Source: an uncultured Bacteriovoracaceae bacterium (lineage in GTDB: Bacteria > Bdellovibrionota > Bacteriovoracia > Bacteriovoracales > Bacteriovoracaceae). From it: a stretch of 64,000 nt of DNA. Below are positions 5,967 to 52,077 of this stretch, piece after piece. Made by a program: the position numbers and the translations under genes. Numbering within the stretch: position 1 is the first letter of the stretch; every line of letters starts with the position of its first letter. Where the stretch lies: NCBI GenBank assembly GCA_964012805.1, contig CAXGUD010000009.1, positions 49,204 to 113,203 of the forward strand, given 5' to 3'. The notes under the pieces were generated by a model. It did not search any database. It was not told the origin of the DNA and saw only the letters and a program-made list of their open reading frames with translations.

Positions 5967-7112
5967 ATGAAAAGACCACAAATAGTTCACTTCATTACAA
6001 TTATATCAGACGACTTTATTAGTCTAAAGGCTGCAGTCGGATTATCGAGGAAACCCAGTATCCTCCAAGAACCCGGTCTAACACCCATATCAAGTTTAGA
6101 AAGTGATATTGCAAGTTTCCCAATTCAATCCTTTAACCTCCTCAACTCCCATGATTTTCAAATCAAAATTATTGGCCTGGATAAAGATCATAAAGTTGTA
6201 TTTGAAAAAGAATATGAAACGGATACTTACGGTAAGTTAAATTTCAAAATCCCCTTAACCAAAGAAACTTTTAAAATAAAGAGTTTTCAACTATACGAAA
6301 CAAGTCGCCTACCTCAGGTCGAACTTCTTCTTGGAAGCTTTATTCCTCTTAAAATCCAAACCCCTAGAAAAATTGTCATTTGCGACTTTGATAAGACCTT
6401 AGTTGATACAAAATACTCCACAACAAAAGAAGTATATGAGTCTTTAACAAAACCCCTTAAGGATTTTCCAAATGTCAAAAAAAGCATAGAGCTTTTGAAA
6501 AGCTATACTAAACAAGGCTTTCATCCTTTTATTCTTTCAGCATCTCCTCACTTTTACGAAAATGCTATTCGAGACTGGTTATATCAAAATAAAATTTTTA
6601 CGGCCGGCATTTTCCTTAAAGATGTTCGTCAAGTTTTTTCTCTTTGGGATGGTGATTTAGGCCCTAGAGATATAACTCATCAGGGTCTCTATAAATTAAA
6701 TCAACTACTAGACATTATAAATATGACTGACATTCCTGACGAACTTGTCCTTATGGGCGACAACTTTGAATCAGATCCCGTGATATATTTATCCTTTTCT
6801 CAAATGATCCAAAATAAGGAGGAGCCATGGGTTATTTGGAAAAACCTCAAAGACCAAAAAGACTTCTCCATTGGAAAAAAACAAAACTCTAAGTTTCTAA
6901 GTAAAATTTTTCAGATTAAAACTCTTCTTAATAACAAAAAGCAAAAAAGTAACAAATTTCAGATTAAATTGAAAATTTTTATTCGAAAAAAACATCCAGA
7001 TGAAGCCTTAAAAATCCCTTCAAACCTAAAAACTGAAGTAACAAGCATTGAAACCTACGCAACAGATACAACACCTAATGAGTTACCATCAAGCAATAAT
7101 CAGCCAGAATAA
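5967..7112 (+). CDS. HAD-superfamily phosphatase, App1/DUF2183 (phosphatidate phosphatase)-like
   Basis: Motif I CDFDKT, motif II LSASP, motif IV MGDNFESD. Confidence 0.7.
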   Translation: MKRPQIVHFITIISDDFISLKAAVGLSRKPSILQEPGLTPISSLESDIASFPIQSFNLLNSHDFQIKIIGLDKDHKVVFEKEYETDTYGKLNFKIPLTKETFKIKSFQLYETSRLPQVELLLGSFIPLKIQTPRKIVICDFDKTLVDTKYSTTKEVYESLTKPLKDFPNVKKSIELLKSYTKQGFHPFILSASPHFYENAIRDWLYQNKIFTAGIFLKDVRQVFSLWDGDLGPRDITHQGLYKLNQLLDIINMTDIPDELVLMGDNFESDPVIYLSFSQMIQNKEEPWVIWKNLKDQKDFSIGKKQNSKFLSKIFQIKTLLNNKKQKSNKFQIKLKIFIRKKHPDEALKIPSNLKTEVTSIETYATDTTPNELPSSNNQPE

Positions 7113-7355
7113 AAGCTCTGTAATAAAGAAAGTTAAGTAACCAATTGCAAGAAAAAGTCCTAGCCGATGAATTCGCTCAGGTTTCACTTTGCTTTCACTG
7201 ATTGAAATTAACATCTTGCCCAAAGGCAACTTACTAAAATTTAGAGGCAAAAACTCCAAAAAAACTCTAAGAAGTGATAGGATCAAAACACAATATTCCG
7301 AATTTTGCTTTAGGAAAAAAGGCATGAAATCAAAACTCCTGACCATAACATTCAC
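7089..7355 (-). CDS. Small hypothetical membrane protein
   Basis: 88-aa ORF with two hydrophobic segments filling the gap between genes; start uncertain. Confidence 0.45.
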   Translation of the reverse strand: MNVMVRSFDFMPFFLKQNSEYCVLILSLLRVFLEFLPLNFSKLPLGKMLISISESKVKPERIHRLGLFLAIGYLTFFITELLFWLIIA

Positions 7356-7378
7356 AATATAAAAAGGCTTATTACCTT

Positions 7379-9061
7379 ATGAACTTTATTCATCTTATCG
7401 GTGATCCAGAGGAAACCTTTTATCAATTAGGGCTAAAGGACAAAACTACCTACAGGCCACTCTATGATCAATTAAGAAAACTCACTCATCTAAACTCGAA
7501 AGTTCTCGATCATTTAATGGATGAAATTTTTAATTGGGGTGGTTATGCCTTAACCTTAAAATCTTCTAACTTTAGAAAAAAAGTTAAAGCCTACAATGAG
7601 GCTATTGGCCTAAAAGAAAGAGAGATGATAACCTCTTTTATTATACCAGAACTTCTTTCTTGCTTATCTAAATGGATTCCTGGTTTACCTCCCCAACTTT
7701 TTGGCTGTTCAAGCTATTTCATGTTGAATGAATTAGGCCAAACACTACATGGAAGAATTTTAGATTTTCCTTTAGTTGGGACATATGAGAATGAAGAGAG
7801 AGCTTTAAGGTGGGACGTGCCAGGTGTTAATAATCAAATTTTTTCCTATTCTTCTTCAGGGCTCCCTTTTTCCTCTTTGACTGCAATGAATTCATACGGA
7901 GTATCAGTTGCTCTCCATCAAAAATACACAGATCACTTCAATATAAAAGGAACACCTATTTTTGAAATTGCAGAAGAAATGCTTCTAAAATGTGGTGACA
8001 AAAAATCTGTCTTAAGCTTTTTAAAAAATAGTGAAAGTTTAACAACATGGGGCCTCTATATTGGTTTTGCTGATGGACAAGTATTAGAAGTAGATCTAAG
8101 AGGTGAAGAGATTTTTATTAATGAGTTCCGACTTGAAGAAAATCAAATCCTATACTTTAACAATATAAATTTAGGGAATCATACAGAAGAAGATGATTCC
8201 TATTTTATGCCTTATGGCGTTCCCTCTTTTTGTCAAATGAGGAAGGACACAGCCGAAGAAGAAATTCAAAGCTTCTTCGAAACCAAAAAAGAAAAGAGCT
8301 CCTTAAATCTATTAAAACTAATGAGTTTCCCCAAAAATCAAAAAACGAATCTAAAAGACTGGAAATTATCCCCTATCACTCAATCAAGCATTTCATGCTC
8401 AACTTTTAATTTAAATGATGAAGAATCTTTATTCATTCCAGGGCCTGCACCAAAGTATATTAGAAAAGAGATTTCTCAATTTAAAAATATTTGGTCTAGA
8501 AAGCCATTGCAAGAAAAGGTTACTTTAAAGTCAGATAAAAAACTCTCTTTTATAACTAATAAATACCACCAAGGTATGAAAGAATTAATCTCAGCACAGA
8601 CTTTTTATGATAAACACGATTTCCACATGGCCTATCACTTCATCCAAGCAAGTATAGAAACCTTAGATAAACTACCTGAGAAATTTATTGCAAAATTCTT
8701 TTTTGCTGTCTTCGAATTTATCCACGAACCACATACTAAAGCAAGAGGACTCATTTTACAGGAATTTAAAGAGCTTAAAGGAAAACTCCCATCCTATTTA
8801 AACGACCATTGCCTGCTATTTATAAACAGACTTCAGGTCTTAATCTCCGGGTACTCTAGCCTCTCACCGATGAGAATTAACCATATTGGTTTAAGAGAGG
8901 TTTTTTATTTTGAAAGAAATATTCCCAGGATCCTATTATACAAGACCATTTCCCCTCTTATGAGGCCAAGAATAGAACTTCTAGATGTTATTTATGGCCA
9001 TATATCTCCCCCCATCAAAATCAGAAAGCCTAAGATTGATGAGGGAAGCCTATCTTTATAA
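7379..9061 (+). CDS. Peptidase C45 / Ntn-hydrolase (acyl-CoA:6-APA acyltransferase-like)
   Basis: Nucleophile context GCSS, LHGRILDFP, TAMNSYGVSV. Confidence 0.75.
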   Translation: MNFIHLIGDPEETFYQLGLKDKTTYRPLYDQLRKLTHLNSKVLDHLMDEIFNWGGYALTLKSSNFRKKVKAYNEAIGLKEREMITSFIIPELLSCLSKWIPGLPPQLFGCSSYFMLNELGQTLHGRILDFPLVGTYENEERALRWDVPGVNNQIFSYSSSGLPFSSLTAMNSYGVSVALHQKYTDHFNIKGTPIFEIAEEMLLKCGDKKSVLSFLKNSESLTTWGLYIGFADGQVLEVDLRGEEIFINEFRLEENQILYFNNINLGNHTEEDDSYFMPYGVPSFCQMRKDTAEEEIQSFFETKKEKSSLNLLKLMSFPKNQKTNLKDWKLSPITQSSISCSTFNLNDEESLFIPGPAPKYIRKEISQFKNIWSRKPLQEKVTLKSDKKLSFITNKYHQGMKELISAQTFYDKHDFHMAYHFIQASIETLDKLPEKFIAKFFFAVFEFIHEPHTKARGLILQEFKELKGKLPSYLNDHCLLFINRLQVLISGYSSLSPMRINHIGLREVFYFERNIPRILLYKTISPLMRPRIELLDVIYGHISPPIKIRKPKIDEGSLSL

Positions 9062-9072
9062 AGTTGCTGAAC

Positions 9073-10800
9073 TTAGTTTTTTATACTATCAATTCGAAGA
9101 GAAGGGTCTCCTAAAAGGTGATACCATTTTAAATTGTCGATAACTTCTTTTTTAGTGGAGTGCTTTTTAAAAAGCTCCATTTGACCATTAAAAAGTAACT
9201 TCCCCAGGTGAGTACTCTTACCCTTTGCTAAAATCTGGTTAATAATAACTGCCATTTTGGCCGGTGGATGCCAAGATATATCTACACTTCCACCATAATA
9301 CGCAACAGCTCCAATCAAAGAGTCATTCCCTTTTGTCTCATTGAGAAACCTCTCACCTAGTCTATTATCAAAAGAGAAACGTCCGTTCTGGCAGGCAACA
9401 TCAATAATAACTGGTTTAACCTTCCCCTTTCCATCTATGTTTTTCACGTCGTTAGAATGATAACTTCTTGAATGGAGGCTAGGCCAAGTGCTCCCTTCAC
9501 CGTGACCAATATAGTTAAGCCAAATAGCTCCCTTATTTAGTACCTTATTAATGTTTTCTGGAGTTGAATTTATTTTTTCCTGCAGAAACTTATAAGGTCG
9601 CAAACCAAAAGCTTTTTCAAGTGGATTTTGCATATTTTTTAAATATTCTACATCAGTAGGATCATACCCTTCGTCAGATGCAATACCAATTTGCCTCTTA
9701 TAACCAGATTTATTAGCATAAGCTCCTTTCTCAAATTGAATCGTTTTAAGAACTTGTACTTCAAGGTCCTGCAAACTATCGACAACAAATCGACCATAAA
9801 AAACGTCAGGAATGTTATCTCTTAGGCCCCCCATAGTAAAATAATCTAAATCAGAAGGAGTTTTGTCATGAGAGTCTGTTTTAACATAATTTGTCGGCAT
9901 GATTTCTTCATGCCCCAAAAGAAGCGCCCAAGAAAAAGCGTCCCTTTTGTATTCAGAACGAAAAAATGATTTTACATCCTTAGCACTTTGACCAAGGCCC
10001 TCTAAAGATATTAATTTAACTTTAAACCCTTGTTCCTCTTTCCACTTCTTCCACGGCTCAAGAGCTTCAAAAAACCTTTCAGGACCCACAACAACAAATT
10101 TTTTATTTGTAACAGAGTCTACTTCCAATAAATCTTTGACTTCATGAGAGGCCACAATATTTTTTGATTTATCAAAGATAGAAAACTCAATTTTAGGATA
10201 GACAAATAATTCTCTATCCATCCCATCATAACGGGAGGGGTACAGCTTAATTCTAGAGATCTCAATACCTCTAAAATCACCTAGGTAGTCAATTTCATAC
10301 AGCTCATTGAATTCATCCTCATAAGTTTCTCTATCAAGTGGTTCAATTTCATCTCCCTCTTTTAAGCATCTACATGGTAACTTCAAGTTTGGTCTGGGAA
10401 GAATATTCGACACCTTCTTGACGGGGCCTTCACGCACATCCACTATAAAATCTGATGGCCTTCCCTCCATAAAAAGGGCCAAATAAGGAAGTCTTGGCTT
10501 ATTAATTTCATCAGTGTTCTTTAGCCTTGGAAATACCAGGTCGGTAAATTTACCGTCTCCAAGAAATTTATTACTTTTAGAGTCCATTAAATTGGCTGAT
10601 TTAAGAGAAAACCTCACTCTTTTTCCCTTCAAACCACGATTTTCTATATTTGCGATGGTCATTCTATTGGCAATACCACCAGTTTCATTAAAATAAATGG
10701 TCTCGGATAAAGCTGGATTAGAAAAAATTATTAAAAAGGTAAAAACTCGCAAAAAAAGCCTTGAATTAAAATTCTCCATTGGAAAATTCTTTTTTTTCAT
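9073..10800 (-). CDS. Peptidase C25 (gingipain) family cysteine protease with propeptide
   Basis: Signal peptide; PSDLDY, PDVFYGRF, catalytic NYIGHG and VACQNG, terminal LLGDPSL. Confidence 0.85.
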   Translation of the reverse strand: MKKKNFPMENFNSRLFLRVFTFLIIFSNPALSETIYFNETGGIANRMTIANIENRGLKGKRVRFSLKSANLMDSKSNKFLGDGKFTDLVFPRLKNTDEINKPRLPYLALFMEGRPSDFIVDVREGPVKKVSNILPRPNLKLPCRCLKEGDEIEPLDRETYEDEFNELYEIDYLGDFRGIEISRIKLYPSRYDGMDRELFVYPKIEFSIFDKSKNIVASHEVKDLLEVDSVTNKKFVVVGPERFFEALEPWKKWKEEQGFKVKLISLEGLGQSAKDVKSFFRSEYKRDAFSWALLLGHEEIMPTNYVKTDSHDKTPSDLDYFTMGGLRDNIPDVFYGRFVVDSLQDLEVQVLKTIQFEKGAYANKSGYKRQIGIASDEGYDPTDVEYLKNMQNPLEKAFGLRPYKFLQEKINSTPENINKVLNKGAIWLNYIGHGEGSTWPSLHSRSYHSNDVKNIDGKGKVKPVIIDVACQNGRFSFDNRLGERFLNETKGNDSLIGAVAYYGGSVDISWHPPAKMAVIINQILAKGKSTHLGKLLFNGQMELFKKHSTKKEVIDNLKWYHLLGDPSLRIDSIKN

Positions 10801-37834: not shown

Positions 37835-38503
37835 TTATATCGGCTTGAGTCTGTAGCCAATACCTCGCATTGTTTCAATCATGTCTTCTGAAATTTTTTG
37901 TCTTAATTGAAGAACATGAGTATCAACCGTCCTCGTCGAAGGATAGTTTTCAAAGCCCCAAACTTTATTCAAAATTTCTTCCCTCGAAAAAACCCTTCCT
38001 GGAGACTCTGCTAGTAATCTTAAAAGATCATATTCCATTTTTGTAAGCTCTAAAGGCTTATCACCAAAAATGACATCACGCTTCTCCAAGTCAATTTTTA
38101 GAGAATGAACTTCAATAACTTTAATTTCTTTTTCAGAAGTCCCTTTATTTTCTCTTAACTGAACCCTGATTCTTGCTATTAGCTCTCTGGGTTCAAATGG
38201 TTTAGTAATGTAATCATTAGCACCAGACTCCAACCCTAGAACTTTGTCAATGAGTTCTGTTTTTGCAGTAAGCATAATTATCGGCATTTGAGGATGCTCA
38301 CTCCTCATCTCTTTTAAAAAATCAATTCCTTGTCCATCGGGAAGCATCCAATCAAGTATAACTAGAGAAAACTCACCATCTTTCAAAGCTCTGGCATGTT
38401 TTAGGCTTCCGGCCAAAGACACGCTATACCCTTCATCTTCCAGATGTTTTTTGAGTGAAATACCCAAATTTTCATCGTCCTCAACTAGCATCACTCTCGC
38501 CAT
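37835..38503 (-). CDS. OmpR-family response regulator (VxrB-like)
   Basis: LVEDD, LDWMLP, GANDYITKPF, winged helix STRTVDTHV...RGIGY. Confidence 0.92.
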   Translation of the reverse strand: MARVMLVEDDENLGISLKKHLEDEGYSVSLAGSLKHARALKDGEFSLVILDWMLPDGQGIDFLKEMRSEHPQMPIIMLTAKTELIDKVLGLESGANDYITKPFEPRELIARIRVQLRENKGTSEKEIKVIEVHSLKIDLEKRDVIFGDKPLELTKMEYDLLRLLAESPGRVFSREEILNKVWGFENYPSTRTVDTHVLQLRQKISEDMIETMRGIGYRLKPI

Positions 38504-38538
38504 AATTTTTTCCTTTTTTCATATAAGAATCTAAAAAT

Positions 38539-40137
38539 CTATTTTTTCAATCCTTGCGTTCCCACTTTCTTTACTTTCCATGGAATTGACAACTCAAATT
38601 TTGTCGGGTTTTTTGAAAAAGCAAGCTTACCACCCATATCCCTTAAAACTTTTTTAACAATATTAAGGCCCAAACCAGTTCCCGAGCTTTTTTCTCCCTT
38701 TACAAATTCAGAAGTAATTTCTTCTAAAGAAGAAAAGGAACATTCGCCACAGTCTTCAATTGAAACTTTCCAAAAATCTTCACTTGCACAAACCTTAACG
38801 GTGATCGGAGCTCTTCCATGGGCTTTGGCATTTTCCAGGATATTCTTGATGCAAATACTAATCCAATAAGGATCAAAGAAGGCGCCTCTATCATTGTCCA
38901 ACCCTTCGAAACGCCCCTTTTCATCTTGAATATAAATATCAATTTGTTCTTTGATGAATTCATTTAAAGAGGGTACGTCGTCCTCCTGTTTTTGCAAAAG
39001 TCCTTCTGGATTTTCCATTTTTAAATAATGCCGACTAGTCTCAGTTAATCTTTGCAATCTAAAAACATCATTACTCAATCTCAAAAAGGACTCTTGAAGA
39101 TCCTCATTTAGGGTTAAAATATTTTTTTGGACGCGTTCTACCTGGAGGAGCATACTGGCAATTGGAGTTCTGAATTCATGAGTCAAAACCTGAAGCGCAA
39201 GCCTTTTCCTTTGCTCCTCAGTTCTTTGCTGCCGGATTTTATTGAGAAGAATAAAAATCACGAGAGATATAATAAGTAGAGAACCAAGAAAAAAGTTAAT
39301 GGTTGAAAAACTCGTAATTTCCAAAAAATGCCTTACATTATACTCCCAACACAGTTCACCATCTTGAATAAAGCACCTTTTATCCTTACTGTAATTTTTA
39401 ACTACGTAGGGAGAATCTTTAATAAAGTTCTCCAAATCCTTTCTTGTGTAAAGGCCATACTCTAGACCCATAACTTTGCCAAAATGTTTAATTTTTGAAA
39501 AAAGATATTTTTTGCTTAATACAAATTCATTTCCTTTTACCAGAGCATCAAGAGAATTATTCGCAAGTTCAGATAAAATTTCAAAAACACCACCTATCTC
39601 TGATAAATAGGTTTTTAAATGTTTAAACTCAGACACATGAAAATAAAAAAGGTGTTTTTTTACCCATATATCTGAAAAATAAGAAGCCTTTTTAAGCTTG
39701 AAAGCCAAATAGGCATAACTTTTACCACTTGGATGCATAAAAGGCGGGTTTTTAAAGTATTCTTTTGGCAAACGCCTTCGGTCCCCACAACGAAATTCCT
39801 CCCACACCAAAACTTTTTCGTAATTTACAGAATTGAGAATGCTCGAAATATTTGTATAACAATTTTTAGAAGATTCATAAACGTTTAGCTCTTTTAACTT
39901 CTCTTCCCTATTATAAAAGGGGTTCATTAACTGAAAGTGGTCTCTGGAATAATAAATTGAGTTCAGGTTAACTACCATTCGAGGAACATATTGTTTTTTA
40001 AACTCTTGCTTTACCTTCTCTATTTCAACAAGATCTCTTGGGCGAGACTCATAGGGCCTTTGGAGAAAAAGCGCAAAATAGCCCGTTACAAAGGCCATAA
40101 TGACAGCTGTAAAAATTAAAGTATAATATAGCTTCAT
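38539..40137 (-). CDS. Sensor histidine kinase with DUF3404 (VxrA-like) periplasmic domain
   Basis: H-box LTHEFRTP, N-box ENAKAHG, G-box GTGLGL; sensor motifs HPSGKSYA and C...GELCW recalled from VxrA. Confidence 0.8.
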   Translation of the reverse strand: MKLYYTLIFTAVIMAFVTGYFALFLQRPYESRPRDLVEIEKVKQEFKKQYVPRMVVNLNSIYYSRDHFQLMNPFYNREEKLKELNVYESSKNCYTNISSILNSVNYEKVLVWEEFRCGDRRRLPKEYFKNPPFMHPSGKSYAYLAFKLKKASYFSDIWVKKHLFYFHVSEFKHLKTYLSEIGGVFEILSELANNSLDALVKGNEFVLSKKYLFSKIKHFGKVMGLEYGLYTRKDLENFIKDSPYVVKNYSKDKRCFIQDGELCWEYNVRHFLEITSFSTINFFLGSLLIISLVIFILLNKIRQQRTEEQRKRLALQVLTHEFRTPIASMLLQVERVQKNILTLNEDLQESFLRLSNDVFRLQRLTETSRHYLKMENPEGLLQKQEDDVPSLNEFIKEQIDIYIQDEKGRFEGLDNDRGAFFDPYWISICIKNILENAKAHGRAPITVKVCASEDFWKVSIEDCGECSFSSLEEITSEFVKGEKSSGTGLGLNIVKKVLRDMGGKLAFSKNPTKFELSIPWKVKKVGTQGLKK

Positions 40138-41198: not shown

Positions 41199-41576
41199 TT
41201 ACGATCTTTTCTCTACAATCCTTCTAATTGTTTCTTTCAGCTTATCTTCTTTGAAGGGCTTAAGGAGCCAAGCCATGACAACTCCTACTTTTTTGGCCTC
41301 TAAAATAAGCTTAGGATGGCTTTCAGTAGTACACATAACTGTAGGTATTTGCTTGTATTTTTCATCCTCAGCTTGAACTTTTATAAACTCCATCCCGTTC
41401 ATTTCCGGCATATTCACATCGAGTAATATAAGGTCAAACGTATCCTTTTCCTTAAGCTTTTCCAAAGCATCGTAGCCATCAACAGCTTCAACTATACTAT
41501 GGTCAGCAGCGGTTAAGATGTTTCTGAGAGTTGTTCTTACTGATTCCGAGTCGTCAACAACTAAAATATTGGCCAT
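41199..41576 (-). CDS. Single-domain CheY-like response regulator
   Basis: LVVDD, LDVNMP, KPF; ATG 41576 after AGAGGA. Confidence 0.88.
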   Translation of the reverse strand: MANILVVDDSESVRTTLRNILTAADHSIVEAVDGYDALEKLKEKDTFDLILLDVNMPEMNGMEFIKVQAEDEKYKQIPTVMCTTESHPKLILEAKKVGVVMAWLLKPFKEDKLKETIRRIVEKRS

Positions 41577-41671
41577 AAAATCCTCTACCTTCTTACCAGA
41601 CATTAAGTCTTCTTTAGGTCTATCATAACTCGGAAGAGAACTAATTATGGAATGACGGAAAATTATTCCAA

Positions 41672-41698
41672 GAAAAAGGGCCTACAAGGCCCTTTTTC
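41672..41698 (-). terminator. Terminator after the glutaminase gene
   Basis: AAAAAGGGCCT-ACA-AGGCCCTTTTT. Confidence 0.8.
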
Positions 41699-41714: not shown

Positions 41715-43280
41715 TTACCTTTTTGAAACAGGTTTCTTTGATCCCTTATACTTCTTTAACAAGTTTTCAACTTCTTTATGCCCTTCCCTTTCAGCATCAG
41801 AAAGTGGAGTTCCACCCCACCGGTCTTTTGCAGTAGGGTCCGCTGAGTGCCCCAGTAGGTATTCAACCATTTCTTTTTTGCCTTCAGAAGAAGCCAAGTG
41901 AAGCGCAGTTCTCCCATCATAATCTGCTTGATTTATATCAAACCCTCTTGCAAGAAAAGCCTGAACTTCCCTTAAAGAGCCCTTTGAAGCCGCCCATAAA
42001 ATTGACTGGATATCGTCACTGTTTGCCAGATTTTGATTAACTCTCGGGTCCATTTTCTTTGAATGCCCGGCAATAAGGCTATCGAAATTGTGAAAGTTGA
42101 AATTCTCTACAAGTCTTTCACAAAAATCAATACCTCGAACAGAGTTGCCCATCGCATCAAGAGGAGGAGACCAAACACAAATTCCCATCAGGTTTGGAAT
42201 AACAATAAGTAGACCACCTCCAACACCACTTTTTGCAGGCAGCCCGATAGTAAAGGCAAACTCTCCAGAAAAGTCATACATGCCACATGAAGACATAAGC
42301 GAAAGGCAGTTTTTGACTGTGTCAGGCGTAAATAGCTTATCTTGGGTAAGGGGGCAGATACCGCTATTAGCAAGAGTTGCAGATACAGTCGCCATTGATT
42401 CAGCTGTTAACTCAATTGAACAGCATTGAAAATAAAACTCTAGTGTCTCTATAAGCTTCGTTTGCTCTGGAAAAGAGTTATTTTCCCTCATAAAATAACC
42501 TAGAGCAAAGTTTCTATCGGCCGTCGCTCTTTCAGATAAATAAACTGCATTATTAAAGGTAGGTTGACTTCCACCAGCAGCCCTTTTCCACATATCTAAA
42601 ACATAATCAAACCTCTCAGCTGGCTCTAGAGTTGGTTTGACCATAGAACTCGTCATAATAGCACCAGCATTGATAAACGGATTATGAGGCCTTTTTTTTG
42701 GATCTAGAGTAATTTCATTAAACCCATGTCCACTAGGTTCGCGACCAACATGAGTATGGACTTTATCTTGGCCAAACTCCTCAAGGGCCAAACAATAGTT
42801 CAACGTTTTCGAAGTTGATTGAATACTAAAATACTGATCGCACTCACCAGTTGAGAAGATCTGACCATCAATCGTACAAATAGACACGCCAAAGTTTTCT
42901 GGGGCCACTCTTTTAAGCTGTGGAATATAGTCCGCAACCTTACCACCATTATTTTTCTTAACTTCATTATATATTTTTTTTATCTCTTCAGAAAAACGAT
43001 TAAACTCTGGAATAATAAGTTGGTTTTGAAAAACTTTGTCAAAAAGCAAAGATTGATCCTGGATCAACTTATCAAATTCTTTAAAAGTAAGTTCATTAAC
43101 TCCGTTCAACTGACCAACTTTTTCGTAAAAACTCTTCAGGCGCGGGTCTTTTTTAGAAAGCCCGCTTTTTTTTAGAACTTCTAAAATCTCACGAAGATTG
43201 ACGCGTCCTTTTCTTTCTTTATCAAGAGACCTAAAAGACTGACCCAGGCTCGCCTGTTCAGCATTCTGATCTTCCAACAT
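41715..43280 (-). CDS. glsA: Glutaminase A with N-terminal EF-hand-like region and C-terminal ankyrin repeats
   Basis: ADYIPQL, catalytic IQSTSK, NPFINAGA, GLPAKSGVGG; ankyrins DYDGRTALHLA and DRWGGTPL. Confidence 0.93.
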   Translation of the reverse strand: MLEDQNAEQASLGQSFRSLDKERKGRVNLREILEVLKKSGLSKKDPRLKSFYEKVGQLNGVNELTFKEFDKLIQDQSLLFDKVFQNQLIIPEFNRFSEEIKKIYNEVKKNNGGKVADYIPQLKRVAPENFGVSICTIDGQIFSTGECDQYFSIQSTSKTLNYCLALEEFGQDKVHTHVGREPSGHGFNEITLDPKKRPHNPFINAGAIMTSSMVKPTLEPAERFDYVLDMWKRAAGGSQPTFNNAVYLSERATADRNFALGYFMRENNSFPEQTKLIETLEFYFQCCSIELTAESMATVSATLANSGICPLTQDKLFTPDTVKNCLSLMSSCGMYDFSGEFAFTIGLPAKSGVGGGLLIVIPNLMGICVWSPPLDAMGNSVRGIDFCERLVENFNFHNFDSLIAGHSKKMDPRVNQNLANSDDIQSILWAASKGSLREVQAFLARGFDINQADYDGRTALHLASSEGKKEMVEYLLGHSADPTAKDRWGGTPLSDAEREGHKEVENLLKKYKGSKKPVSKR

Positions 43281-43377
43281 AACTTCCCCTTAGTTTTATA
43301 TTTTCTTATTCTGAAATTTAATGACTCAAAAACATTTTGCGCTCTTTAATTACTCAAACCTCATGCACTTAGATACT

Positions 43378-43406
43378 AAAAGGGGGGAGCAAGACGGCTC
43401 CCCCCT
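43378..43406 (-). terminator. Terminator after glutamine synthetase
   Basis: AGGGGGGAGC-AAGACG-GCTCCCCCCT with adjacent A-tract. Confidence 0.8.
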
Positions 43407-43432
43407 AATGTATTTGAATCTTTCTTTAAGTA

Positions 43433-44479
43433 TTAAAGATTACAGATTGTTTTCATAAGAAGTTCAGAAACAATATAAGGATCAGAGTTAGCTCCTGGTC
43501 TCCTATCTTCAATATATCCATAACCCTTTCTTGTTGTGGCCATAGGAATTCTTATCGAAGCTCCTCTATCTGAATTACCTGAACGGAATTCATTGATACT
43601 ACAAGTTTCGTGAAGACCTGTTAGCCTATCAGCAAGACCTGAACCGTAGTTTTCAATGTGAAGTTGATGCTTTTCTGCTAGGTTGTTAACAGCAGACTCA
43701 ATCGCTCCCATTCCTTTGGACTTGTCTCTCATATCTCTTGTAGAGAAATTTGTATGCATTCCTGCACCATTCCAGTCTCCCTTGATGGGCTTGTTTTCGA
43801 AAGAAACTGTCACATCATATTTTTCAGAAATTCTTTGAAGTAGAAAACGGGCTAACCAAACATGGTCACTCATTGTAAGAGGATCAGCAGCTTCGCCATC
43901 AAAAGCTCTATAACCGATTTGGAACTCCCACTGACCTGGCATAACTTCAGCATTTGTACCGTAAATATTTAGACCTGCCTCTTCGCAAGCTTTAGCGTGT
44001 TCATCACATATCTCTCTACCAAAAATATTCGAAGCCCCTACACCACAGTAAAATGGTCCTTGTGGAGCAGGATAACCACCTTCAGGCCACCCCAATGGAC
44101 GCCCTGATTTATTGAAAAGTGTGTATTCTTGCTCAAAGCCCACGTAAGCATCTTGCTCATTTCCACCTTTTTCCATAACTTCAACAAGTGAAGCTCTTTT
44201 ATTCGTTGCATGAACTGAACCATCAGCATTGTAAACTTCACAAAGGGCTAAATAGTAACCTTCGCCTCTTAGAGGATCCTTAGCAACTCTGACAGGCTTC
44301 AATTCACAATCTGAATCATTTCCATCGGCCTGATTCGTAGAGGAACCATCAAACCCCCAATCTGGAAGATCAGAAACAGCTGGCTCACTTTCAAATGTGA
44401 CTAACCTAGACTTTGAACGAAGTGCTTGAGTTGGCTCGGCACCATCTAACCAAATGTATTCTACAAATGCTCTTTTCAT
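43433..44479 (-). CDS. glnII: Glutamine synthetase type II
   Basis: 348 aa; EYIWLDG, WGFDGSST, PQGPFYCGVG, NAEVMPGQWEFQIG, DWNGAGMHTNFST, EDRRP. Confidence 0.93.
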   Translation of the reverse strand: MKRAFVEYIWLDGAEPTQALRSKSRLVTFESEPAVSDLPDWGFDGSSTNQADGNDSDCELKPVRVAKDPLRGEGYYLALCEVYNADGSVHATNKRASLVEVMEKGGNEQDAYVGFEQEYTLFNKSGRPLGWPEGGYPAPQGPFYCGVGASNIFGREICDEHAKACEEAGLNIYGTNAEVMPGQWEFQIGYRAFDGEAADPLTMSDHVWLARFLLQRISEKYDVTVSFENKPIKGDWNGAGMHTNFSTRDMRDKSKGMGAIESAVNNLAEKHQLHIENYGSGLADRLTGLHETCSINEFRSGNSDRGASIRIPMATTRKGYGYIEDRRPGANSDPYIVSELLMKTICNL

Positions 44480-44645
44480 TTTAAAACTCCTTTCTTGCCT
44501 AAACTAAATAAAATAACGGGCAAAAATTTATACTGAAAATTAAAAGCAATGTTTCTAACACAAATAAAAAGACAATAATATTTGGGATCTAGCCGACAGC
44601 GCAAGTAGAGCTTAAGTAGGAGTTCGTACTTTTCTTTTTTCATAT

Positions 44646-44663
44646 TGTAAGTCACCACCTACA
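44646..44663. promoter_or_regulatory. Operator-like inverted repeat upstream of glnII
   Basis: TGTAAG-TCACCA-CCTACA; same geometry as 45709-45726. Confidence 0.5.
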
Positions 44664-44802
44664 CACGATATATCAATACTAAGAAAAAAAAAATAAAAAA
44701 CAGAACTTTTAAAAATAGGTAAACCCTTTTTCTGTTGGAAGTGTCAAGGAAAGATTTTTTATAAAAAGTTTATTTTAAAAAGAGGATCGAGGTTATCCCT
44801 TT

Positions 44803-45519
44803 TTATGAATTTTTTAAAATGTTTTCTTTTATTGCAAAAGAAACTATATCAGCATTATTTTTAAGATTGAGTTTTTCTAAAATCCTGTTTCTATAAGTGG
44901 AAATTGTCTTTGAACTTAGTTCTAGGTCATAAGCGATCTCTTTAGTTAAGCGGCCCTGGGCAAGTCCCATAAAGACCTGTCTTTCTCTCTTTGAAAGGAT
45001 CGCCAACTTATTACAATCATCCTTTTTGCCAAGTTTGTCTTCAATGGCATGAAAGCCTTCAAGGCCATTCTTTTCTATAGAAGACTCATCGTGCTCACTA
45101 TTAAAAAATTGTAGAAGAAGATCACCTCCAAAATACCGTCTGCCTGCAAAAACTTCCTGAAGAGCAAAAGCCATTTGATCAATTGAGCTATCTTTGACTA
45201 TATAACCCGATGCTCCCAAACGAACGGCCATCTTCACATAATCTGAATTTGAAAACATTGTAATAAAAATAACAGGCATCTCGGGATAAAGAAGTCTTAC
45301 CCTTTTAAAAATCTCTAAACCGCTTTCCCCAGGAAGAGATATATCCAACAGAAGCATATCGAAATTTGCTCTCTCTAGGTGATCAAAAGTCTCAACACCG
45401 TTGGAACACTCAATCAAGTCAGCATCAATCGGGGAATCATGGATCATTTCAATGATCCCCTTTCTGACAATCTGATGATCATCTGCTATTAAAATCTTCT
45501 TTTTTTTAACAAAGGTCAT
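44803..45519 (-). CDS. NarL/FixJ (UvrY-like) response regulator, no adjacent kinase
   Basis: IADDHQIVRKG, LDISLPG, LuxR HTH LSKRERQV...KTISTYRNRILEKL. Confidence 0.92.
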   Translation of the reverse strand: MTFVKKKKILIADDHQIVRKGIIEMIHDSPIDADLIECSNGVETFDHLERANFDMLLLDISLPGESGLEIFKRVRLLYPEMPVIFITMFSNSDYVKMAVRLGASGYIVKDSSIDQMAFALQEVFAGRRYFGGDLLLQFFNSEHDESSIEKNGLEGFHAIEDKLGKKDDCNKLAILSKRERQVFMGLAQGRLTKEIAYDLELSSKTISTYRNRILEKLNLKNNADIVSFAIKENILKNS

Positions 45520-45708
45520 GCTTACCTAAATATTCATAATCACTGAGTAATCTTAATTTTAGAAGTCGTGGAACATAACTTTTACGATACCTTTTATCAA
45601 TACATTTTCTAAAAAAATAAACAATATTTAATTTATAAATAACTTAATAGTTTTGGCACAAGTTCTTATAGCAAAAAAAACTAATGACTAGTAGGTCTAT
45701 CTTCATCT

Positions 45709-45726
45709 TGTAGATCCCTTCCTACA
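45709..45726. promoter_or_regulatory. Operator-like inverted repeat upstream of the NarL regulator
   Basis: TGTAGA-TCCCTT-CCTACA. Confidence 0.5.
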
Positions 45727-45732
45727 TTTACG

Positions 45733-47141
45733 TCATTCAAACCCTTTTTTTGAACCATGTTTAAAACGCGAATTACCCTTATCAGAAGAAGAATTCTCAC
45801 TTACACGGACATCCAGGGGAGCTGCAATCGATTCGGGTGCAAAACAATAGGCGCTTTCGTAATGCTCTCCCAAATCTAAACCATGCTCCTCTTCCTTTTT
45901 TGAGACTCTGAGTCCAACAAAAAGGTCAATCAGCTTAAAAAGGGCCCATGAAACCCCAAAAGTTACTAAAGCAATAACAAATATTCCTTTTACTTGCGAT
46001 AAGAGCTGCCCAGAAGAGGCTAAAGTTCCAAAAAGGCCCACAGCTAGAGTTCCCCAAATACCACATACCAAATGCACAGAAATCGCCCCAACTGGATCAT
46101 TTATCCTTAATTTATTGAAAAGCTTTATAGAAAAAACTACAAAGACACCTGCTATGAAACCAATAATGAGCGCCTCAACAAAGTTCATTTGATCAGCACC
46201 TGCCGTAATTCCAACAAGACCAGCCAAAGCACCATTAAGCGTCATCCCCAAATCAGGCTTCTTTGAAATACTCCATGAAACAATCATAGAAGCTAAAAGT
46301 CCCGATGCTCCAGCAATAGCTGTTGTCATAAAAACAAGAGAAAGCTTATCAGGCGATGCAGAAAGTACGGAACCTCCATTAAACCCAAACCATCCAAACC
46401 ATAGAAGAAAAACTCCTACCGTTGCCAAAGGATAATTATGGGGTACAAAGCTTTTACCTCCTTCATACCTCCCTAGGCGTGGACCTAAGCAAAGCGCTCC
46501 TGCCAGAGCTGCCCATCCCCCTACAGAATGAACAATACTCGAACCAGCAAAGTCATAAAAAGGTACTTTTAAAGTCTCTTAAAAGCCCCCTCCCCACTTC
46601 CACATGCCAATTACAGGGTAAACAAAGGCGACAAAAAGGGTTGAGAAAATTAAAAATGAAGATAATTTTATCCTCTCACAGACTGCTCCACTCACAATTG
46701 TTGCAGCAGTTGCAGCAAACATCGCCTGGAATATAAAATCTGTGTAATAGGTATAAGAAGGATTGTAGCTTGATGTAAGGCCCCCTGAACCAGGACCTAT
46801 TCCAAAACCTCCGAATCCAAAAAAGCTTCCAGCAAAGTCGGCTCCTGGGTACATTAGGTTGAAACCGCAAAACGCGTAAGTTAAAAGGCCTATCGCCATG
46901 ATGGCCGAATTTTTAAAAAGGATATTAACAGTATTTTTAGACTGGGTCATACCAGTTTCAAGGCAAGCAAACCCAAGGTGCATTATGAAAACCAGGCACG
47001 TAGCCAATAAAATCCAAAGGTTGTGCGTAGTAAATGACAAACTTGCAAGGTCCTTTTAAAGACCCCATGAGTTTGAAAGTGGAACTAAGGCAATAAAAAC
47101 TAGGATTATTTTTTTAAATTTTGATAATTTAATTTTATCAT
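45733..47141 (-). pseudogene. amtB: Ammonium transporter AmtB, disrupted
   Basis: Track ORFs 46579-47040 and 45733-46428 are in one frame and joined by intact Amt sequence (FYDFAGSSIVHSVGGW...LGPR). In-frame TAA at 46579-46581 and 47056-47058. The RBS-preceded ATG at 47141 is out of frame across an A7 tract. Confidence 0.85.
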
Positions 47142-47283
47142 TTATAAAGCTCACCTTGATAAATTCATTTGGAAAACAAATAATGAAATTTATTAGGGAA
47201 CCTTAGTCAATACTACTACCCCACTTCCTACAGCTTTCCAAGGCCATCCGACAGACTTCCTATATAATGTAGACCTTAAAAAC

Positions 47284-49391: not shown

Positions 49392-49769
49392 TTAAAATCC
49401 TTCGCCGGTCACTTTTTTAAGGACCATCATTAGCTCACTAATTATGATCGGTTTATCAGCAAAGTAGACTTTTTGAAACGTTTCACTCAATTTTTTGGCT
49501 TCAGTCATCTCTTTCGTCACAAATAGAACCGGTACTTCTCGGTTGGGACAGTTTTCATTCCTAACTTCTTTAAGAAACTCTGAGCCTTTCATGACAGGCA
49601 TTTCGAAATCTGTAACAATAACACTAAAGAGGGAGGTTTTTAAAAGACTAACTCCTTTATAGTGACTCTCTGGAAGGACAACTTCAAAAATGTCACTTTC
49701 AGAGAATATATTTGCAACAACTCCACCAGTTCCATCTTCATCATCAAACGCGAGGATTTTTCTTTTCAT
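49392..49769 (-). CDS. Single-domain response regulator receiver
   Basis: AFDDE, TDFEMP, DKP. Confidence 0.8.
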   Translation of the reverse strand: MKRKILAFDDEDGTGGVVANIFSESDIFEVVLPESHYKGVSLLKTSLFSVIVTDFEMPVMKGSEFLKEVRNENCPNREVPVLFVTKEMTEAKKLSETFQKVYFADKPIIISELMMVLKKVTGEGF

Positions 49770-51693: not shown

Positions 51694-52077
51694 CTACGCA
51701 GCAACAGGGGTTGATTGAAAGAGCTCCCACCTTTCCTGGGCCTTATAAATGGCCTTAATAAGGTGATCTTTTATTTGATCTTTTTCTAAAAAGGCATCAT
51801 ACCTTGGAGCGCTTTCCCATATCATTTCATCTCTCTTTCTACCGCTAATGAGAAGCACTGGATACCGCCCGTTAATAAACTCACAAAAATCAAGACCTCC
51901 CATCCTGGGCATAAAAACATCCACAATCAGGAGGTCAAAACCCCCTTTAGTTGACACTAGCTTCTTAGCGTCAATACCATCAGCAGCTCTTAGGAGTTGA
52001 ATACCTTCCTTTTTTAGAAGGAAGGAGAGCATTTGAAAAACCTGATCATCATCATCAACAAGCAAGACGTTTTTCAT
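51694..52077 (-). CDS. Single-domain response regulator receiver
   Basis: LVDDD, VDVFMP, LISG, LEK. Confidence 0.82.
   Translation of the reverse strand: MKNVLLVDDDDQVFQMLSFLLKKEGIQLLRAADGIDAKKLVSTKGGFDLLIVDVFMPRMGGLDFCEFINGRYPVLLISGRKRDEMIWESAPRYDAFLEKDQIKDHLIKAIYKAQERWELFQSTPVAA

Follow-up and report, generated by a model that had tools for sequence, protein, structure and literature searches.

An animal-type glutaminase clustered with glutamine synthetase and Amt in a marine Bacteriovoracaceae bacterium, and the recurrence of this gene set in other bacterial phyla

Introduction

In textbook nitrogen control glutamine synthetase (GS) and glutaminase, which catalyse opposite reactions, are kept apart, and regulation relies on PII, GlnD and GlnE; in enteric bacteria type I GS is switched off rapidly by adenylylation. 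GS of types II and III (GSII, GSIII) are not known to be adenylylated. The stretch of DNA analysed here, 64 kb from the 100% complete genome of an uncultured marine Bacteriovoracaceae bacterium (assembly GCA_964012805.1, contig CAXGUD010000009.1, positions 49,204 to 113,203; hereafter the window), raises the question why both enzymes should be encoded side by side, as it carries a glutaminase gene next to glnII for a GSII, a gene for a response regulator and the ammonium channel gene amt. A preliminary description, made from the letters of the window, had proposed a dedicated module for glutamine and ammonium cycling under a regulator with a LuxR-type helix-turn-helix (LuxR-HTH), plausibly suited to the life of a predator.

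The analysis reported here leads to a wider and, concerning function, tentative answer. The cluster represents a widespread module in which an animal-type glutaminase is combined with GSII or GSIII and Amt, and this module may well buffer glutamine and glutamate independently of PII and GlnE. The module is built from known parts and is apparently undescribed: in full-text searches of the literature outside subscription journals, no paper was found whose title or start of abstract describes such a cluster.

Results

Recurrence of the gene set and exchange of partners

An alignment search of GTDB confirmed 582 relatives of the glutaminase, and the neighbourhoods (up to 8 kb around the glutaminase gene) of the best 80 of these 582, near-relatives included, were analysed. 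Of these 80 animal-type loci, 53 contained a GS gene (38 GSII, 14 GSIII and one GS-like), 40 contained amt and 36 both, while a regulator of the NarL family was present in 24 and GS, Amt and regulator together in 17. According to the record titles, the 36 loci with GS and Amt belong to Myxococcota (13), Actinomycetota (9), Bacteroidota (7) and Pseudomonadota (2), with one each from Bdellovibrionota, Ignavibacteriota, Margulisiibacteriota, Planctomycetota and a record without a phylum in its title; at least one of the Pseudomonadota titles is doubtful, the same genome having surfaced in a draw from Bacteroidota. The nearest partner was found on the same strand and less than 500 bp away in 53 of 57 loci, where the starts of open reading frames (ORFs) are first-codon calls and large overlaps are artefacts, and the order of the genes differs freely among copies.

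The control consisted of even draws from phyla with 8 kb on each side, from which the centre genome was omitted: 32 of 33 rows from Bacteroidota and, with the four weakest omitted too, 20 of 25 from Actinomycetota were used, together with seven rows from the bacterium's own family. Next to the 56 control glutaminases without an EF-hand or ankyrin match, GS was found in no case, Amt in one and a regulator in one; type I GS, sought with one GS-like query only, was not found. Since kin occur among both the 80 loci and the control rows, all these figures are raw counts and carry no statistical test.

The partners were exchanged repeatedly. On a glutaminase tree of 40 rows the GS type changes four times, three of these changes being forced by starred branches, and a single GSIII-linked clade was rejected (p-AU 3e-55). 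The Amts of the module are polyphyletic and come from several subfamilies (31 rows, p-AU 8e-85), and a single orthologous regulator for all copies was rejected as well, as the regulators do not form one clade. Such exchange of non-orthologous partners speaks in favour of selection for what the set does and against one fixed protein interface.

Kinases of one cluster were present in 17 module loci. All five that were scanned belong to the HisKA_3 type, and a PilJ sensor is present in two of these; the N-box, reported as a nitrate-binding motif (PMC6381276), was exact in nine of the 17 and present with its core in 12. A PII gene was clustered in five of 83 loci, and no family of amino-acid transporters occurred in four or more of these 83, which points to internal glutamine as the substrate. 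Among 43 module genomes (the source genome of the window, its congener G001 and the genomes behind 41 of the 53 loci with a GS gene), GlnE was found in 12 and GltB in 22, and GltB was not found in the other 21. As a separate observation, a family of about 150 amino acids lies near the glutaminase in six of the 83 loci (L107, at 10175-10630, L109, L114, L121, L152 and L177); its motifs W-x-H-E-A-H and G-Y-H-E-T are conserved and the one member scanned gave no Pfam match.

An animal-type glutaminase

Listed initially as the product of glsA, the window glutaminase proved to be of the animal-type, three-domain form. It aligns with human GLS with an E-value of 4e-149 over residues 24-514, and its single chain runs from an EF-hand-like N-domain through the catalytic domain to ankyrin repeats at the C-terminus, the identical order being displayed by human GLS/KGA (5UQE, 8GWR) and GLS2 (8SZL). 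On the glutaminase tree it groups with records titled Bdellovibrionota (support 99/99). The catalytic and substrate residues S155, K158, Y335, Y118, N204, E250, N257 and Y283 are intact; in human numbering S286, K289, Y466, Y249, N335, E381 and N388 show no variation among the 83 bacterial copies and Y414 is kept in 82 of 83. The differences from the human enzyme concern activation and context. R317 and K320, given as phosphate-binding residues of the human activation loop (PMC13142944), correspond to G186 and E189 in the window, Lys at position 320 occurs in none of the 83 copies, and the absence of the phosphate-activation residues from nearly all of them suggests that the bacterial enzymes have no phosphate gate. 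Moreover, the bacterial glutaminase has no mitochondrial leader and is encoded next to GS and Amt.

Two side observations concern the same family. Contig C36 of the source genome (L036, 8554-9870) encodes a further animal-type glutaminase, which shares 65% identity and possesses the EF-hand, lacks ankyrin repeats and has neither GS, Amt nor other nitrogen genes as neighbours; it is present in the congener too. In sequencing runs X9 and X12, which represent relatives of about 97%, window positions 43184-43319, where the glutaminase gene starts and its first 32 codons lie, are swapped for 21-23 other letters.

Glutamine synthetase and the missing control genes

The product of glnII finds its best-matching family in NF041605 (450 bits, below the cut-off of 500) and aligns over its full length with 16 GSII-type structures (E 6e-116 to 1e-97), in comparison to an E-value of just 8e-15 for a GSI model. 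The genome probably has no other true GS; its second PF00120 gene belongs to a cluster for the catabolism of gamma-glutamyl amines. The latter (contig C26, L040, 4270-10310) consists of the GS-like enzyme, an amino-acid permease, an iron-type alcohol dehydrogenase, a likely hydrolase and an aldehyde dehydrogenase, these neighbours being named from sequence alone, and resembles an ethanolamine/polyamine gamma-glutamylation set.

No match to PII (PF00543) was obtained in the complete source genome, and a search of the genome found neither GlnD nor GlnE. The large subunit GltB was not found there either, the only relative being a stand-alone FMN-domain protein of the glutamate synthase family with 518 amino acids, and glutamate dehydrogenase (GDH) is present. 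No NtrC scored above the cut-off in the genome; the best candidate reached 441 of the required 558.6 bits and is located outside any nitrogen context. Sites for sigma-54 (up to two mismatches) occur 15 times in the 64 kb against 19 expected, and none lies upstream of the four genes. The absence of glnK, ntrC and sigma-54 sites from the cluster, as noted in the preliminary description, was thus confirmed and for PII, and for NtrC above cut-off, extended to the whole genome. That an amt without glnK is unusual holds only in part: the absence is real, yet it is common in this family, in which Amt was detected in 45 of 151 genomes and PII above cut-off in 14.

The regulator and its candidate operator

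The regulator, in which D13, D14 and D59 can be read as acidic pocket and phospho-acceptor Asp, is the sole LuxR-HTH gene of the source genome. As previously assumed, no kinase gene stands beside it. It resembles UvrY/GacA more than NarL proper, the UvrY/SirA/GacA family being its third-best NCBIfam match at 113 bits, far below the family cut-off of 280. A search for a cognate kinase, which the preliminary description had suggested, yielded no HisKA_3 kinase, with or without N-box or PilJ, in the entire source genome. As to a partner of the BarA type, none of 61 HPt matches in that genome was assignable to the regulator. These matches, mostly in proteins of 600-1370 amino acids, constitute a very large expansion in themselves. 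Also apart from the cluster, contig C15 (L039, 7266-9335) encodes a 689-residue fusion of Amt with HisKA and HATPase domains, found as a 698-residue frame in genome G002 too; both pore His are retained, the S1 Trp is Leu, and the protein is a candidate ammonium sensor.

Alignment of the leaders of the source genome and the congener revealed one palindrome ahead of glnII and another ahead of the regulator gene. When a published consensus of the GacA box (PMC8523701) was used as a strict box with up to one mismatch, the site before glnII was the only one in the window, and 11 such sites occur in the 4.47 Mb genome; a relaxed pattern was derived from the sites of the two genomes themselves, and its fit there is no test. 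In 1.13 Mb of module loci from other genomes the strict box was met at two places, one of them downstream of the genes of locus L150 and the other 96 bp upstream of a glutaminase-glnII-amt operon in locus L156 of Margulisbacteria. The Amt of L156 is sister to that of the congener (100/99), the recognition helix of its regulator is similar, and the two regulators share one broad clade only. Two further ORFs of L156 were noticed, one of 314 amino acids with a signal-like N-terminus ahead of the kinase (6797-7741) and a separate ankyrin-like one of 98 amino acids between glutaminase and glnII (9506-9802).

The conserved operator-like palindrome supports a tie between the regulator and glnII. The leader of the glutaminase gene in the window contains no palindrome, and a genome-wide palindrome regulon was rejected, as the counts at spacer 6 (2 perfect, 21 with one mismatch) were not above those of other spacers, and no other targets are proposed. 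For structured RNA in the leaders there was likewise no support, since the window, leaders of the cluster genes included, gave no Rfam match and these leaders fold no better than shuffles. A scan for sigma-70 promoters remained at chance (27 matches, 22.8 expected).

A channel gene in the course of loss

The preliminary description rightly listed amtB among the cluster genes and overlooked that in this strain only a pseudogene of amt is left, its reading frame being interrupted by TAA at 47056-47058 and again at 46579-46581. An assembly error was excluded by the recurrence of the stops in contigs of other runs: both are present in X4, X5 and X6, the first two of which appear to represent a single data set; the inner stop falls within the sequence covered by X7 and is present there, and X3 has the inner stop only. 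Contig L188 of the same species, 99.7% identical with 19 differences in 6605 bases, has neither stop and encodes an Amt of 473 amino acids, and amt is intact in the congener, which displays the same gene order at 82% DNA identity. Read-through or another genetic code was excluded as well, given that TAA terminates neighbouring genes and that both positions are occupied by sense codons in L188. Long decay was ruled out by a dN/dS of 0.12 against the congener, inside the range of ten neighbour genes (0.007-0.16). Because intact, one-stop and two-stop alleles coexist and dN/dS resembles that of the neighbours, the loss must be recent and still segregating, and the alleles form a natural series.

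In the congener the twin-His, the Phe gate and the S1-site residues of Amt are all present. Across the module Amts both His and both Phe are kept in 40 of 40 and the S1 Trp in 25 of 40. An Rh-type channel found no support, as the congener's protein matches Amt structures and is closest to bacterial ammonium transporters.

Distribution in close relatives

A synteny comparison, proposed with the preliminary description, recovered the four-gene order in the congener, but in only two of 238 genomes of the order, so that it is confined to this genus. An orthologue of the regulator was found among close relatives only in the congener. GSII occurs in seven of 151 family genomes; in G029 and G063 it adjoins amt, with no regulator or glutaminase there. 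These two amt-glnII loci (L053, 11762-15254, and L056, 3923-5016, respectively) lie beside STAS and anti-sigma kinase genes, with a SpoIIE phosphatase gene in G029, a setting that might indicate partner-switching control. The animal-type glutaminase was detected in six of the 238 genomes, among them G002, where the contig begins inside the gene. The assumed fit to a predatory lifestyle is not borne out by this distribution within the order nor by the presence of the module in Actinomycetota, Bacteroidota, Myxococcota, Planctomycetota and Margulisbacteria; of the dedicated module under a LuxR-HTH regulator there remains a recurring glutamine/ammonium set outside GlnK/NtrBC, neither specific to predators nor, in its four-gene order, a trait that they generally share.

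Architecture of the locus

Profile and domain scans placed all four genes on the minus strand in the order initially described, and the terminators then attributed to glnII and to the glutaminase gene were recovered as strong hairpins (Table 1). Co-orientation carries little meaning here, because every main ORF from about 24.5 to 52 kb of the window is located on the minus strand.

Table 1. Features of the cluster in window coordinates.
Feature	Position	Strand	Basis or remark
Terminator-like hairpin 3' of glutaminase	41672..41698	-	-19.7 kcal/mol, z -4.2
Glutaminase, animal (kidney)-type, 521 aa	41715..43280	-	Pfam EF-hand_14, Glutaminase, Ank_2; TIGR03814 above cut-off
Terminator-like hairpin between glnII and glutaminase	43381..43406	-	-24.2 kcal/mol, z -5.2; stem identical in G001
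Glutamine synthetase type II (glnII), 348 aa	43433..44479	-	NF041605; GSII structures
GacA-box-like palindrome, 167 bp upstream of glnII	44646..44663	.	1 mismatch to published box; kept in G001
Response regulator (REC + LuxR-HTH), NarL/FixJ family, UvrY/GacA-like	44803..45519	-	Domain and family profiles
Weaker GacA-box-like palindrome, 190 bp upstream of regulator	45709..45726	.	Mismatches to strict box: 3 here, 2 in G001
amt pseudogene, GTG start, 473 codons	45733..47154	-	Two in-frame TAA

Further genes nearby comprise a VxrA-like kinase (DUF3404) and a regulator of the OmpR family at 37835-40137, 94-99% conserved in the congener, and three small receiver-like genes flanking the cluster (41199-41603, 49392-49769, 51694-52077), of which the first, the only one scanned, is Response_reg and 99% identical in the congener. 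One RNA run (X18, share 0.08) gave three contigs on glutaminase and glnII and none on regulator or amt; it was not used, this being too little material with DNA not excluded.

Discussion

A proposed buffer for glutamine and glutamate

The physiology proposed here, cycling and regulation included, is deduced from gene content and comparison. In the reading that we favour, Amt and GS would trap ammonium as glutamine at the expense of ATP, and when glutamine overshoots, the glutaminase would act as a relief valve returning glutamate and ammonium, thereby standing in for the fast adenylylation switch that closes type I GS of enteric bacteria. Likely binding sites of the UvrY/GacA-like regulator are the palindromes upstream of glnII and of its own gene, and the Amt-histidine kinase fusion on contig C15 may be considered one kinase candidate among many. 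In favour of such a valve may be cited Escherichia coli without GS adenylylation, for which persistent build-up of glutamine and slower growth after an ammonium upshift are reported (PMC2736657).

Several observations weigh against this buffer. The same report finds no large depletion of glutamate in the E. coli glnE mutant (PMC2736657). In this genus a strong terminator splits glnII from the glutaminase gene, so that the two need not be co-expressed, and natural populations of the species can lose Amt. Neither GS nor Amt was present in 23 of the 80 animal-type loci, and the glutaminases of G117, G109 and G133 within the order have no partner within 8 kb. The sample is biased by kin, and in an unbiased Bacteroidota draw one of three animal-type genes had the full module, in a genome already among the 80. 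The regulators of different copies are not monophyletic, and IQ-TREE gives no support to a sister link between the regulator of the window and that of L156. Finally, the occurrence of GlnE and GltB in part of the module genomes makes the module independent of a loss of the standard system.

A bolder version is possible but doubtful: a third mode of nitrogen control in at least six phyla, in which a co-expressed GS-glutaminase-Amt unit would be governed by a nitrate-sensing or GacA-like switch and the ankyrin glutaminase would replace the PII/GlnE brake, possibly docked on Amt at the place of GlnK. If this were true, the module would be the bacterial forerunner of the triad of GS, glutaminase and ammonia channel in animal liver and kidney.

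Alternative explanations

Among the alternatives, linkage for shared inheritance only survives best, though we consider it unlikely. Amt and GS would then be used when nitrogen is scarce and the glutaminase when glutamine is plentiful, with no cycle between them. Such separate use fits the terminator and the separately conserved leader between glnII and glutaminase in both genomes of this genus, the missing palindrome in the glutaminase leader, the freely variable gene order and three loci in which the nearest partner lies within 500 bp on the opposite strand. However, many copies have their genes tens of bases apart on one strand, the palindrome of L156 heads an operon that begins with glutaminase and includes glnII and amt, and plain glutaminases almost never occur in such clusters.

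Quite improbable is a release of ammonia as in renal ammoniagenesis, by which glutamine made by GS would be split and ammonia would leave through Amt against acid or nitrite stress. The enzyme triad is that of animal kidney and liver, and both the nitrate-binding N-box in module kinases (exact in 9/17, core in 12/17; PMC6381276) and the suggested lack of a phosphate gate would suit this role. On the other hand, the module has no glutamine/glutamate antiporter, the uptake of ammonia by GS equals the output of the glutaminase, the channels are Amt-type and nearest to bacterial ammonium transporters, and Amt is dispensable in this species.

More improbable still is that the module replaces glutamate synthase (GOGAT), with GS trapping dilute ammonium and the glutaminase releasing it at a level usable by a low-affinity GDH. 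The net stoichiometry would equal that of GS/GOGAT, and the source genome, with GDH and without the GltB large subunit, as well as the 21 of 43 module genomes in which GltB was not found, would agree with it. As a general purpose it is weakened by GltB in the remaining 22; moreover, no gdh recurs in the module and GS would recapture the ammonium unless it were channelled. A deliberate futile cycle spilling ATP when energy exceeds its use in growth is very improbable, for although the two reactions sum to ATP hydrolysis and co-orientation is tight in 53 of 57 loci, it leaves an intact, repeatedly recruited Amt and a nitrate-type sensor unexplained.

Implications and comparison with known systems

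Returning to the glutamine/glutamate buffer, opposing enzymes that are linked and for which different synthetases and channels were recruited several times suggest another route to steady glutamine and glutamate. The cultured carriers Micromonospora, Streptomyces, Nannocystis and Flavobacterium make the module directly testable, and a cellular context is provided for the relatives that human glutaminase, a target of cancer drugs, has in bacteria. The window contributes a copy with a pseudogenised channel, no adjoining kinase gene and a candidate operator.

With the amtB-glnK and glnA-ntrBC systems of E. coli, where a GlnK-AmtB complex is described (PMC10433425), the module shares the ammonium-scavenging pair of Amt and GS and two-component control. 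It differs in a GS of type II (elsewhere III), a glutaminase in the cluster, a LuxR-HTH regulator that is not sigma-54-dependent and, in the source genome, the lack of PII, GlnD, GlnE and NtrC above cut-off. Ks-Amt5, reported as an ammonium-sensing Amt-histidine kinase (PMC10433425), has its likeness in the Amt-HisKA-HATPase fusion of contig C15; in contrast, the latter is unlinked to the cluster and its pairing with the regulator is a candidate only. Nitrate sensing by NarX-NarL and McpN, as reported (PMC6381276, PMC8199190), recalls the PilJ and HisKA_3 kinases of other module copies, whereas the linked genes serve ammonium and glutamine and not nitrate respiration, and the source genome has no such kinase. 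As in BarA-UvrY and GacS-GacA, a site resembling the GacA box with one mismatch lies upstream of the predicted target, here glnII; unlike there, the predicted targets are nitrogen genes and the family score is far under its cut-off. Small RNAs of the Csr/Rsm kind, the targets of GacA, have no counterpart among the Rfam families scanned for in the window.

Operons of glutaminase and transporter are represented by glsA-glnT of Bacillus subtilis with GlnK-GlnL and by ybaS-ybaT of E. coli. There, as here, a glutaminase is under two-component control. These operons join a plain glutaminase to an amino-acid transporter for external glutamine; no such transporter stands beside the glutaminase in the window cluster, and the module has GS and Amt instead.

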